The notes beneath the pieces were generated by a model that searched no databases, was not told the DNA's origin, and saw only the letters and a list, made by a program, of their open reading frames with translations. The position numbers and the translations under genes are program-made. DNA of 64,000 nt, taken from Octopus vulgaris (lineage: Eukaryota). Positions 8,760-57,523 of this stretch are shown here, one piece after another; the first letter of the stretch is position 1, and the number at the start of each line of letters is the position of its first letter. The stretch covers positions 44,640,001 through 44,704,000 of the forward strand of contig OX597838.1 of the NCBI GenBank assembly GCA_951406725.2, read 5' to 3'.

Positions 8760-8940
8760 GGTACCGAACATAAAAAACACGTAGACACAATTAGAAACGA
8801 AAACATAAGAATAAAAACATAGAAAACAAACTTTTTTTCGAACAACGATAAAAACAGAGAACCGAGACACGCAACATAAGGAACATTCCCTTCATCAGTT
8901 GAATCTGTCTCATCTACTCCGCCTTTCCGAAGGTAAGGAC
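8760..8940 (-). mobile_element. Truncated Penelope-type pLTR-like element in (TA)n, related to 15956-16715
   Basis: Reverse complement GTCCTTACCTTCGGAAAG...CTGATGAAGGGAAT followed by a T-rich tail, similar to ~16490-16715; TA-rich tracts on both sides. Confidence 0.5.
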
Positions 8941-9501
8941 TATATATATATATATATATATATATATATATATATATATATATATATATATATATATATA
9001 TATATATATATATATATACACACACAGATATTTATATCTTTCAATCTAAAGTGCTAATAGTTGTGTTGTTGTTTACCTCGTTTTATAATTGTAGGAATTT
9101 GTCATGGCATTGCGAACAGAATGGTGATGCTGATGGTGTTGGTGGTAGTGGTAGTTGTATTTGAGTGCTAGGATTGTAGTAGCGTGACGCTGGTGATGTG
9201 GATCGTGTGTAGCCGCTTTCGTGATTGTGGTTAAGTTGGTGATGACCTTCATGAGTTTAGTGGTGATGGAGAAGGTAATGGTATTATTCGTGGTGCTATT
9301 CGACGTGATGGCCATAATAGAGTTGTATAATTAAAACAGTAAAATTCAGTTTATAGAATATGTTGTACCTATTCATAATAAAAAAAATATATAGGGTGGA
9401 TTCCACATGTTACAATTTAGATATGTATGTATATATGTATATATATATATATATATATATATATATATATATATATATATATATATATATATATATATAT
9501 A

Positions 9502-10794
9502 CAAGGGGCGTTCAATAAGTAATGCCCCTGACCCACTTGTAGTTGTTTGATCTAGCTAAACTTTTGAGTGTGCAATTATTTGTCTCTCTATAGAGTAGGT
9601 AGCAAATTACAGCTCTGAACTTATTGGGGTTTCTGATTTACAGGTGTTTGAACTGAGTCAAGTGTGAAATGAAGCCTGTTGAGTGTCGAGCAGTGATCTG
9701 GCTTTTGTATTTGAAAGGATGCACACCACGGGAGACTTTTGATGAAATGAAAGTAACTTATGGTAATGATGCCCCATCATATGACCATGTAAAACGCTGG
9801 CATCGTGAATTCAAACATGGTCGGAACTCGGTGGAAACAGCTCCCAGATCTGGTCGGTCCACTTCTGCAATTGATGAGGCATCTGTCCGTCAAGTTGAGG
9901 CTGCCATTTTGGAAGATCGACGAATAACTATTCGCCAAATAGCCCACGAGGTCAAGATTAGTACCGGGTCTGTGGAAACTATCATTCATGACCATTTGCA
10001 TATGCAAAAGGTGTCTGCCAGATGGATTCCCAGGTTGCTCACACCTTTCCAGAAGCAAGAACGCATCGAGTGCTCGAGGATGAATTTGGAGATGTGCCAA
10101 GAAGATGAGTCAAAATTTTTCAAAAGACTGATTACACAGGATGAAACCTGGGTCCATCACTATGATCCAGAGACCAAAGCCCAGTCAATGCAGTGGAAGC
10201 ACCGTGACTCACCTCCTCCAAAGAAAGCAAGGGTGCAGCCCTCCGCTGGCAAGGTCATGCTCACAGTCTTCTGGGACCAGGACGGAGTATTGATAACAGA
10301 TTTCCTGGCAAAGGGTACCACAATTACAGGAGTCTATTATGCTTCACTTTTGAGGAAATTAAGAAAAACTATCAAAATCAAGAGGCGGGGCAAGATCAGC
10401 AAAGACATCATCCTCCTGCAGGACAACGCTCCGGTCCACAACTCGATGGTCGCTAGATCAGAAGCACAGGCGTGCGGCTATGAACTTCTCCCCCATCCCT
10501 CCTACTCTCCTGACCTTGCACTCTCTGCTTTTCACCTCTTCCCAGCCATGAAGTTGTTTTTGAAAGGAAAACGTTTCCCAGATGATGCAGCCTTGATTTC
10601 TGAAGTCATGTCGTGGTTGGAGGACCAAGCTGGGTCTTCTAAAAAAAACGGTCTCCAGAGCTGTATCAAACGATGGGAGAAATGCGTAACTCTGGGTGGT
10701 TCCTATGTAGAGAAAGACTAATAACTGTGCAAAGTTTCGTTGCTCTACTGCTATGGGAAGTGGGTCAGGGGCATTACTTATTGAACGCCCCTCG
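9502..10794 (+). mobile_element. Full-length mariner transposon (1293 bp)
   Basis: 37-bp TIRs at 9502-9538 and 10758-10794 (1 mismatch); TA on both sides within (TA)n; internal transposase ORF. Confidence 0.97.
9669..10721 (+). CDS. Mariner transposase, intact 350-aa ORF, probably catalytically dead (DD34D to DD34A)
   Basis: N-terminal HTH region, WIPRLL (WVPHEL-like), TQDETW, QDNA, HPSYSPDLALSAF instead of HPPYSPDLAPSDF. Confidence 0.93.
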   Translation: MKPVECRAVIWLLYLKGCTPRETFDEMKVTYGNDAPSYDHVKRWHREFKHGRNSVETAPRSGRSTSAIDEASVRQVEAAILEDRRITIRQIAHEVKISTGSVETIIHDHLHMQKVSARWIPRLLTPFQKQERIECSRMNLEMCQEDESKFFKRLITQDETWVHHYDPETKAQSMQWKHRDSPPPKKARVQPSAGKVMLTVFWDQDGVLITDFLAKGTTITGVYYASLLRKLRKTIKIKRRGKISKDIILLQDNAPVHNSMVARSEAQACGYELLPHPSYSPDLALSAFHLFPAMKLFLKGKRFPDDAALISEVMSWLEDQAGSSKKNGLQSCIKRWEKCVTLGGSYVEKD

Positions 10795-11540
10795 TATATA
10801 TATATATATATATATATATATATATATATATATATATATATATATGGTGGGGCAGTGTATGTATTAATGTTGACTAGAAGAAAATTTAGACACCAAATAT
10901 TATCTAAAATGGTAATGACAAAGATTCGTTCATAACAACGATGCTGGTGCTTTGTTGGCATGTTTCCCTCTGAGTGGGGTTTCGGGCTCTCCAACATGAA
11001 GTCGAGTCTTCGATTCTCGACTTGGAAGCATCTTTGATCAAGGCTATTTATTTCATGCTCTTCCAGGCTACTCTCGGCTAGAATGAGTAGCGGATGAACC
11101 CTCGATATTTCACTGGAAATAGTGAAGATTTTATTATGCCTCCAGCCCCTAAATAGACTCCAAAAACATATTAAAACGTGTTGTAGGTTCCATCAAGTTA
11201 CTATCGCTTGCGCGTGACATCTGTGGTGTTCATTTTATACATAATTTATAAGTTAAATATACTATCAGTTACTTCTTTGTGATATGCATAGTGATAAACG
11301 ATAAAGAGAGATAACACATAGAGATAATGTATAAACACCTTTATGTATCATATCTTTTAATGTTTATTTATTATCGAGAATAATATGATAATAGAGTTAC
11401 TGAAGACATCACCTTTATCAATTATATATATCAATTACATACTATGAGACGAGAATAATAAAATACAATTATCACTAATATACAAATAGCATTACCTCTA
11501 TATACATAGGAATATAAATTCATGTATATATATATATATA

Positions 11541-55004: not shown

Positions 55005-55345
55005 TCTATTTCAACCCCGAAAAGCTGTGGCCGTGCTGGGGCACTGCCAGTGTTACCACCTTTTCAATGGTTTTGTAATTGGTTTTTCATGAAGGAGGGA
55101 ATACGTTAGTGCTGCCCTCTTTTGAGTTTCTTGCCGTGATGACCTTGGAGAACAGGAGCGCCAGCTGTTCCTCGAAAACATCTACCCCTACTCCATGTAG
55201 TACATCTCTCAGATGTTTTGGTAAGATCTTGAATTCCAAGGTATTGCAGTACATGGTCCCTTTGAAATAGTGCAGCGGCCTCCACTTTTGGGCTTGTCTG
55301 GCTCTCCATACCAAATTTTCGTGTCAACCAACCCAGGATATTTCA
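55005..55345 (-). mobile_element. 3' fragment of an older CR1/L2-group LINE related to 11541-13478
   Basis: ILPKHLRDVLHGVGVDVF versus ILPKNLRDLHGVNADVF; tail GGCAGTGCCCCAGCACGGCCAC. Confidence 0.75.
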
Positions 55346-55547
55346 TATATATACATGATATATATATATATATATATATATATATATATATATATATATA
55401 TATATATATATATATCATATAAAGTTAATCCAAACAACAAAACACAAAAAAACACAACAACGCGAGGACGTGAAACAAATATAGTATTATTGGACGCTCA
55501 GGAAAGAAGGGAATATATATATATATATATATATATATATATATATA

Positions 55548-57523
55548 AAGTTTAATAATTAAGGATAATCTCTTAATAAGGGATCTTAACAAGAAATTAT
55601 CGGGTAGCTAGCGTGAAAACCTCATAAAAGAAAAGAATCCGAAAATAATTTTTTTCTTTTGAACAAATTAATTATATCTATATTGTATAGAGGGCATTAT
55701 TACACATAAATGCCTCACACTAGGAGGGACAAAGTCATTACTACCAAAATTATACTAATCATACCCAAATGCAGTTTTTCAAAGCAAGACATTTAAAAAA
55801 TGAATTTAGTTCTGTATCACCGTGATTTCACATACAACTTGCGTCTAATGATCGTCAGCAGAACTGATTCTGAACACATCATAAATAAACTACCAACCTT
55901 ACGTAGCGAAGACGAACAGACAACTGCTCACTCCGGCCAAGCACATGGAATGTTTATAAATCATATATCCGGTAAATGGCGGGCTTTTTACGAACTGCAT
56001 GTCGGGTAATGAAAAGTATTTCGGAATAAGTTTAACAATTAAGGATAATCTCTTAATAAGGGATCTTAACAAGAAATTATCGGGTAGCTAGCGTGAAAAC
56101 CTCATAAAAGAAAAGGATCCGAAAATAATTTTTTCTTTTGAACAAATTAATTATATCTATATTGTATAGAGGGCATTATTACACATAAATGCCTCACACT
56201 AGGAGGGACAAAGTCATTACTACCAAAATTATACTAATCATACCCAAATGCAGTTTTTCAAAGCAAGACATTTAAAAAATGAATTTAGTTCTGTATCACC
56301 GTGATTTCACATACAACTTGCGTCTAATGATCGTCAGCAGAACTGATTCTGAACACATCATAAATAAACTACCAACCTTACGTAGCGAAGACGAACAGAC
56401 AACTGCTCACTCCGGCCAAGCACATGGAATGTTTATAAATCATATATCCGGTAAATGGCGGGCTTTTTACGAACTGCATGTCGGGTAATGAAAAGTATTT
56501 CGGAATAAGTTTAACAATTAAGGATAATCTCTTAATAAGGGATCTTAACAAGAAATTATCGGGTAGCTAGCGTGAAAACCTCATAAAAGAAAAGAATCCG
56601 AAAATAATTTTTTTCTTTTGAACAAATTAATTATATCTATATTGTATAGAGGGCATTATTACACATAAATGCCTCACACTAGGAGGGACAAAGTCATTAC
56701 TACCAAAATTATACTAATCATACCCAAATGCAGTTTTTCAAAGCAAGACATTTAAAAAATGAATTTAGTTCTGTATCACCGTGATTTCACATACAACTTG
56801 CGTCTAATGATCGTCAGCAGAACTGATTCTGAACACATCATAAATAAACTACCAACCTTACGTAGCGAAGACGAACAGACAACTGCTCACTCCGGCCAAG
56901 CACATGGAATGTTTATAAATCATATATCCGGTAAATGGCGGGCTTTTTACGAACTGCATGTCGGGTAATGAAAAGTATTTCGGAATAAGTTTAACAATTA
57001 AGGATAATCTCTTAATAAGGGATCTTAACAAGAAATTATCGGGTAGCTAGCGTGAAAACCTCATAAAAGAAAAGAATCCGAAAATAATTTTTTTCTTTTG
57101 AACAAATTAATTATATCTATATTGTATAGAGGGCATTATTACACATAAATGCCTCACACTAGGAGGGACAAAGTCATTACTACCAAAATTATACTAATCA
57201 TACCCAAATGCAGTTTTTCAAAGCAAGACATTTAAAAAATGAATTTAGTTCTGTATCACCGTGATTTCACATACAACTTGCGTCTAATGATCGTCAGCAG
57301 AACTGATTCTGAATACATCATAAATAAACTACCAACCTTACGTAGCGAAGATAAAAAGCCCGCCATTTACCGGATATATGATTTATAAACATTCCATGTG
57401 CTTGGCCGGAGTGAGCAGTTGTCTGTTCGTCTTCGCTACGTAAGGTTGGTAGTTTATTTATGATGTGTTCAGAATCAGTTCTGCTGACGATCATTAGACG
57501 CAAGTTGTATGTGAAATCACGGT
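55548..57523 (-). repeat. Retrozyme-like tandem array: 3.75 x ~480-bp units plus a 172-bp inverted end
   Basis: Unit starts at 55548, 56028, 56507 and 56987 (to 57351); inverted piece 57352-57523; one HHR per unit; TA tracts on both sides. Confidence 0.9.
55808..55865 (-). ncRNA. Type-I hammerhead (copies at 56287-56344, 56767-56824, 57247-57304; truncated + copy at 57477-57523)
   Basis: AGTTCTG-CTGACGA-tCAT.aGAC GCAA GTT..ATGt-GAAA-TCAC g GTGA-TA-CAGAACT. Confidence 0.85.

Follow-up and report, generated by a model that had tools for sequence, protein, structure and literature searches.

Hammerhead-like inserts at (TA)n sites in a 64-kb stretch of the Octopus vulgaris genome, likely ends of Penelope-like elements

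What are the many short hammerhead-like inserts that lie in and beside the (TA)n tracts of an octopus contig, and from what kind of element might they derive? In this study we analyzed 64,000 nucleotides of Octopus vulgaris (contig OX597838.1, positions 44,640,001 to 44,704,000; 'the window'), an AT-rich stretch (36% GC) with abundant microsatellites. A sequence-only reading had described about ten largely unrelated types of insert with hammerhead or hammerhead-like folds and had seen in them a system of Penelope-like elements (PLEs) and non-autonomous retrozymes. We found that 14 loci in the window carry type I minimal-hammerhead motifs, relics and variants included. One of them, at 39.1-40.2 kb, is, judged by its coding remnant, a truncated 3' end from a PLE of the Neptune/Nematis type that codes for protein; the other inserts probably represent further PLE families, either as their 3' ends or as non-autonomous derivatives, and were likely placed at (TA)n by a similar enzyme. 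We give this reading a probability of about 0.82. The earlier observation is partly confirmed and its interpretation partly supported.

The locus that ties hammerheads to a PLE has three parts:

39107..40218, no single strand: fold-back of two 5'-truncated copies of one PLE 3' end, Neptune/Nematis type; arms 39107-39444 and 39716-40052, 97.6% identical; (TA)n runs on both sides
39213..39718, minus strand: broken open reading frame (ORF) with the linker between reverse transcriptase (RT) and endonuclease (EN), a CX4CX2C zinc motif and GIY-YIG with CCHH; one frameshift, one stop
40107..40145, plus strand: predicted type I minimal hammerhead with U3-A8 core, 2-bp stem II and palindromic stem III

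The ORF fragment, in which the sequence-only reading had correctly recognized a GIY-YIG piece, spans residues 151-319 of protein P0001 at 93-100% identity and is 74% identical to P0002. It aligns to the C-terminus of both, and P0002 has RVT_1 followed by GIY-YIG; in related PLE loci, too, hammerhead motifs of this kind follow the ORF. The RT domain itself lies outside what the element retains in the window. The linker motif lies within 39318-39629 (minus strand), its three cysteines being invariant in 33 relatives. The closest named protein relatives are from bivalves (43-47% identity). A Pfam search did not recognize the 104-residue GIY-YIG fragment, and locus searches with single-protein queries found nothing. 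Among the named protein matches, as in loci L001-L005, animal-type PLE sequences occur within bacterial genome bins, probably as host contamination.

The hammerhead of this element lies about 140 nt past the stop codon, with a predicted GUC cleavage site at 40139. In the window copy, core position 5 (40116) is C and not G. When contigs from four runs were aligned to 39450-40215, nearly all depth in every run had G at 40116 (in run X1, 568,893 of 569,518, from 56 contigs); some contigs of each run have one more A behind 40138/40139, with which stem I is complete at 7 bp. Across the inversion point, 39450 is joined to 39716/7 on the other strand by contigs that are collinear there and extend the ORF upstream. 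Among the variants listed, those inside the motif lie only at 40116, at 40125 in the loop and at the added A, versus seven changes in 40059-40090, and the hammerhead of this family appears more conserved than its flank. Summed contig depth was 1e5-1e6 versus about 50 for single pieces, which suggests thousands of copies, depth not being a measure of copy number. We read the family as a multi-copy, protein-coding PLE that bears a U3-A8 minimal hammerhead in its 3' untranslated region (UTR), with a dead copy in the window. A further candidate hammerhead on the minus strand at 40204 was rejected: its stem I is rich in G-U pairs and stem II is missing.

Related PLE loci carry motifs in the same place. 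We searched them with a strict type I descriptor, whose thresholds had been chosen after the sequence had been viewed. Eleven loci had at least 40% identity and at least 250 nt after the ORF; seven of these showed a convincing descriptor match there, an eighth match (L005) was doubtful, and L001 and L019 added two more by eye. In L019 the motif, about 225 nt past the ORF match, is hammerhead-like without stem II and has a palindromic stem III and a 3-bp stem I. Variants seen in the window recur in the related loci, namely a U.U where stem II begins, one additional base following A9 and a palindromic stem III; three more distant PLE loci have the U3-A8 core, and L064, L071 and L090 contain opposite-strand pairs facing outward. 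TATATA follows within 160 nt of the motif in five of the seven close relatives (background 0.19), which is suggestive only, since the runs are short and one lies inside stem I. By eye, two short motifs between stop codon and hammerhead (40002-40012 and 40099-40106 in the window) recur in the UTRs of L001, L004, L011, L013 and L017; possibly they are promoter elements of the pseudo-long terminal repeat (pseudo-LTR).

The other hammerhead-bearing inserts, together with sites that belong to their families or resemble them, are as follows:

36708..37114, no single strand: fold-back, arms 90.1% identical; hammerhead 36797-36837 (minus) intact, 36983-37023 (plus) mutated
37307..37526, plus: copy of the 36.8-kb family within (TA)n; hammerhead 37385-37425, stem I weak
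55416..55512, minus: 3' piece of the 36.8-kb family, without hammerhead, flanked by TA runs
21656..21835, plus: distant member of the 36.8-kb family, hammerhead core deleted
43786..44239, no single strand: fold-back, arms 99.5% identical; two intact hammerheads with long stem II (43915 minus, 44110 plus), AATAAA after each
19839..19886, plus: intact hammerhead with 10-nt palindromic stem III, absent from the earlier list
20455..20502, minus: U3-A8 hammerhead, A6 changed to U, 6-bp stem I; then AATAAA; TA 88 nt downstream
21496..21540, plus: weak relic whose 5' side has given way to (TA)n
21993..22048, minus: intact core, good stems I and III, decayed stem II; part of an incomplete direct repeat with a period near 490
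40416..40460, minus: U3-A8 hammerhead, 5-bp stem II, non-palindromic stem III; then AATAAA
53062..53559, no single strand: fold-back inside (TA)n, arms 99.5% identical; both motifs with A9 changed to C, loop 3 non-palindromic
13757..13850, plus: truncated 53-kb family member (93.6%); position 9 is again C, and G5 is changed as well
51808..51957, no single strand: fold-back, arms 94% identical, distantly related to the 53-kb family; G3-C8 reading for the right arm, core 51883-51889
55548..57351, minus: tandem array of 3.8 units of 480 nt that are 99% identical, with an intact hammerhead in every unit (cores at 55858, 56337, 56817 and 57297; U.U at the base of stem II)
57352..57523, plus: inverted partial copy of the array unit; stops at (TA)n roughly at the predicted cleavage position (a single case)
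16455..16525, plus: relic with the 3' half of the 44.1-kb motif (stem II/GAAA/stem III), no recognizable core
8860..8900, minus: CUGAUGA plus hairpin; not counted

The core (CUGANGA/GAAA/UH), stems I and II and a palindromic stem III are complete in eight motifs at four loci: 19846 (plus), 36830 (minus), the pair 43915/44110, and the four of the 55.5-57.4-kb array. The remaining ten loci are variants or relics that fall short of a complete type I motif, and defects of the core or the stems affect most window copies. Besides the intact motif at 19846, that at 40114 (plus) was missing from the earlier list. The 8.9-kb site was rejected because no GAAA follows its hairpin.

Over the whole window the descriptor gave 12 matches versus a mean of 1.0 (maximum 5) in 30 local dinucleotide shuffles, a density above chance. 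At a score of at least 10 there were 11 matches, representing seven distinct loci (shuffle mean 0.8, maximum 4). Four of the 12 look like chance: 54771, 27440, 17329 and 7946, all on the minus strand. Two covariance models, trained solely on related PLE loci (29 of their 40 descriptor matches; duplicates, doubtful matches and one odd-length stem III were excluded), were also run over the window and ranked the sites of the sequence-only reading at the top. Six of its ten types reached E<1, as did the site at 19.85 kb. E-values were 3.5e-5 at 36.8 (0.093 at 37.0), 0.02 at 40.4, 0.075 at 20.4, 0.13 for the four motifs at 55.8, 0.39 at 22.0 and 0.77 at 53.3/53.4. The 44.1 motif was found by the descriptor but missed by the models because its stem II is long. 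Among the other proposed types, 21.5 is weak (E 2.3; the 5' strand of stem I is gone), 51.9 fits only as a variant, and 16.5 was matched by neither the descriptor nor either model. Two stray model matches with E<1 at unrelated sites (63739 and 61416, both plus) are in line with chance. We regard the motifs as predicted hammerheads. In six of eight motifs examined, stem III forms a self-duplex of -6 to -13 kcal/mol.

Where do these inserts lie? We scored a link to (TA)n when a run of at least 10 nt occurred within 300 nt downstream of the cleavage position, using the nearer arm in fold-backs. The claim that most lie in or beside (TA)n holds: 12 of the 14 loci are linked, all but 13.8 and 51.9, against a background of 0.20-0.38 (p 3e-4 at the conservative background), and seven of nine model-only matches with E<1 are linked as well (p 0.007). 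Every copy of the 36.8-kb family ends at a TA or TA-like site. The 21.5, 39.1 and 43.8 loci begin at the (TA)n that ends a copy of a short interspersed element (SINE). The further proposal of one shared architecture (hammerhead, AATAAA, tail to (TA)n) is not supported as a general rule, because AATAAA lies within 25 nt of the motif in three of 14 loci only (within 40 nt in five); it applies to a minority. The six fold-backs that had been reported (36.7, 39.1, 43.8, 51.8, 53.1 and 57.4 kb) are all real, with arm identities of 90.1-99.5% and spacers of 6-271 nt. In each of them the 5' ends are central and the 3' ends point outward, an arrangement expected in 1 of 64 cases under random orientation. 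The 3' lengths of the arms are unequal, by 58 nt at 53.1 (left arm longer) and by 166 nt at 39.1, which recalls the optional tail of PLEs. A uniform 160-nt tail on the longer arm was considered and rejected, since the extension at 37.1 is not common to other family members. A seventh fold-back (44463-44647) adjoins (TA)n and has no clear hammerhead; it was rejected as a hammerhead site.

How might such a pattern arise? In the mechanism we propose, an RT-GIY-YIG protein would nick (TA)n, as the linker zinc motif and the work of Craig et al. 2021 (PMC8557442) suggest. Reverse transcription would then be primed at pseudo-LTR sites about 50-300 nt past the hammerhead, by analogy with the anole PLE (PMC11167929), and most cDNAs would end early, leaving stubs enriched for the ribozyme. 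Nicking and priming on both strands might yield two cDNAs joined at the 5' ends of the elements, and so fold-backs whose 3' ends point outward; the outward geometry itself is observed. The anole PLE is described as cleaving and extending both strands and starting at two internal sites in vitro (PMC11167929). Hammerheads could cleave as dimers through their palindromic stem III, and in one case a 480-nt unit may have been cut, circularized and copied round the circle to give the tandem array. In the last step come the defects seen in most window copies. The motifs, the geometry, the target bias and the ORF link of one family are observed; enzyme specificity, cleavage and circles are predictions from sequence. 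The PLE origin of the other 13 loci is likely, as motif type, target and geometry suggest, and most of these elements are likely truncated PLE ends. In these respects the earlier proposal (PLE origin, minimal hammerheads with palindromic stem III, TA targeting, inversions) is supported.

Several observations weigh against this account. A PLE ORF occurs at one of the 14 loci, the other 13 being linked to PLEs by motif type, target and geometry, and no PLE ORF remnant was found beside those 13 within the window. The window is TA-rich, and SINE copies too end in (TA)n. Insertion by the anole PLE in vitro did not need the hammerhead (PMC11167929). None of 12 motif folds beats all its own shuffles (z -2.2 to +0.7), yet weak folds are expected of minimal hammerheads and these energies are uninformative. 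The stem pair counts in relatives (88% and 96% paired, 0 of 500) are circular because the rows had been chosen for pairing. Finally, four members of the 36.8-kb family, from three insertions, share an approximate start point, which seems to fit a dedicated short element better than random truncation.

It is possible, and we keep the idea tentatively, that most families are such dedicated non-autonomous short elements (retrozymes or SINE-like) that borrow PLE enzymes and are not stubs. Besides the common rough 5' boundary of the 36.8-kb family, the 480-nt array speaks for it: the units have no long ORF, are nearly identical and pair strongly with themselves. Folded as a circle, the ribozyme strand of the unit has z -5.5 and the antisense strand z -2.0; 14 control stretches averaged z -0.3 (lowest -2.3). 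Because its non-coding units stand in tandem, two or more of them with a complete type I hammerhead each, and the monomer is highly self-paired, the 55.5-57.4-kb array fits the sequence definition of a non-LTR retrozyme. The other short elements do not; they are single or inverted copies, and the repeat at 22.0 (period about 490), which might otherwise favor dedicated elements, is partial, with a unit that does not pair with itself (z +0.1). The 39.1 family codes for protein, and the 13.8 and 55.45 copies are cut at differing 5' points. The proposed retrozyme system is supported for the array, one of 14 loci, and not for the traced element at 39.1-40.2 kb, which we read as a protein-coding PLE end.

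Rather unlikely, in our view, is that the hammerheads are passengers in pseudo-LTRs whose cleavage is unneeded, so that families with broken cores keep amplifying. The 53-kb and 13.8-kb copies are two separate insertions that have in common A9C and a loop 3 that cannot self-pair (+1.4 kcal/mol), the former with arms 99.5% identical; we read this as a broken core that was amplified afterwards, and activity is still conceivable. The dispensability of the anole hammerhead in vitro points the same way, and hammerhead parasitism was raised in PMC8557442. Against it stand the apparent conservation of the 39.1-family motif over its flank and the compensated U3-A8 and G3-C8 cores. The 51.9 relative retains stem II through a compensated pair; its G3-C8 core lies partly in the 6-nt spacer and is ambiguous (9 of 100 shuffles match the pattern). 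A well-formed G3-C8 hammerhead with good stems occurs in a PLE pseudo-LTR at L079:110-155 (plus), where bases 1-109 recur after the ORF stop, and because of this locus the variant looks natural. No A9C motif was found among loci L001-L090, and the 55 matches of an A9C pattern in viral sequences are put down to chance, none having a stem I of at least 4 bp.

It is very improbable that AT-rich DNA yields these motifs by chance and that the fold-backs are DNA transposons like miniature inverted-repeat transposable elements: Rfam gave no hammerhead among the matches listed (150 of 185; microRNA-like noise only), most model E-values lie at 0.02-2 and a third of the descriptor matches are chance-like, but the excess over shuffles, the G5 restored in other 39.1-family copies, the recurrence of the motifs at the corresponding position of related PLE loci, the PLE ORF within one fold-back and the unequal 3' lengths of the arms refute it for 39.1/40.1, 36.8, 44.1 and 55.8, and not for 16.5, 21.5 and 8.9.

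The surroundings contain further repeats. A SINE-like family, presumably akin to octopus SINEs, has copies ending in (TA)n at 8444-8677, 21416-21503, 32116-32527, 38722-39089 and 43359-43733; three of these tails run straight into hammerhead elements, and a 20-nt pattern of the SINE gave no match against viral contigs. An RTE-like long interspersed element with RT (PF00078) and a duplicated 3' part lies at 45982-49320, and fragments of a further non-LTR element at 11619-13525, 55090-55323 and 58036-58886. Broken transposase-like ORFs at 17030-19700 had no Pfam match; we take them to be hAT/SPIN-like. Pyrimidine-rich elements flanked by TA runs (41402-41762 and 15957-16720) resemble by eye the make-up of the 16.5 and 8.9 elements, and no hammerhead was found in them.

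How dense are these motifs, and what would follow? The earlier estimate of one ribozyme locus per 5-6 kb stands if relics are counted (14 in 64 kb) and fails for intact loci (four in 64 kb); intact motifs occur once per 8 kb (eight in this single selected window). Published totals are thousands per genome, and up to 120,000 in axolotl. This amounts to about one per 100-300 kb, counted with descriptors that differ from ours. It might be, and we think it unlikely, that hammerhead PLE ends occur about once per 5-16 kb genome-wide (at least 10^5 in a genome of gigabase scale), a density tens of times that of published cases, with SINE tails supplying (TA)n and with active natural G3-C8 and A9C cores, of which G3-C8 also occurs in the unrelated PLE locus L079. 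If the density were genome-wide, RNA motifs that cleave themselves would rank with the most frequent structured sequences of the genome, the tens of divergent families would amount to a natural mutational scan of the hammerhead core, and intact copies in introns could cut host transcripts. Apart from this, the near-identical outward fold-backs give genomic support to two-strand priming by PLEs, so far described in vitro (PMC11167929). The described system is extended to another animal, and this helps to sort short repeats to which annotation may give no class or the label SINE.

Motifs, TA bias and inversions of this kind are already published (PMC4209133, PMC8557442, PMC7229834). We found no comparable density, no natural G3-C8 or A9C core and no paper on cephalopod hammerheads in the literature; G3-C8 was found there only as an engineered rescue, and Lunse et al. 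2017 may already describe variant cores. The U3-A8 (PMC4209133) and U.U variants are known. An annotation of octopus repeats from 2026 names 31 PLE families with recent activity and leaves ribozymes unmentioned in its main text. Minimal hammerheads in PLE pseudo-LTRs were reported by Cervera and de la Pena 2014 (PMC4209133) at 2,000-9,000 per genome, with the motifs, their diversity and opposite-strand pairs; its supplement has mollusc examples from Lottia and Crassostrea, and supplement file 2 no cephalopod. Ours resemble those motifs in being type I, in the palindromic stem III, in the extra base between A9 and 10.1 and in the U3-A8 variant, and likewise form opposite-strand pairs 100-700 bp apart and many divergent families of mostly single truncated copies. 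They differ in that eight intact motifs lie in 64 kb and in the G3-C8 and A9C cores, which we did not find among the cores described there.

The 39.1-kb element is placed in Neptune/Nematis jointly, by its domain features; a hammerhead in the 3' UTR and an inverted insertion accompany them. In the account of Craig et al. 2021 (PMC8557442), which covers PLE inversions, tails and microsatellite bias, Neptune/Nematis likewise combine RT, a CX2-5CxxC linker and GIY-YIG with CCHH in a C-terminal EN+ arrangement, with tandem and inverted 5'-truncated copies, an optional 3' tail and a bias for microsatellites. The (TA)n bias is named there for Naiad and Hydra, and the linker is proposed to mediate it in Neptune. 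Unlike Neptune/Nematis tails of 30-40 nt, the arm extensions in the window are 58 and 166 nt; unlike Naiad (N-terminal EN, no canonical hammerhead) and Hydra (no CCHH), the 39.1-kb family has a C-terminal EN and CCHH. Animal non-LTR retrozymes, for which descent from PLE pseudo-LTRs has been proposed (Cervera and de la Pena 2020, PMC7229834), are also the subject of a 2026 preprint by Li, Clavereau and Pollet (10.64898/2026.07.22.740005). Only the 55.5-57.4-kb array fits them, at the level of DNA sequence. It departs from them in a unit of 480 nt, slightly above the quoted 150-450 nt, and in ending in an inverted copy at (TA)n. It shares with them the non-coding units a few hundred bases long that stand in tandem, a single type I hammerhead in each, low GC and strong self-pairing, and its U.U at the base of helix II is also known in axolotl.

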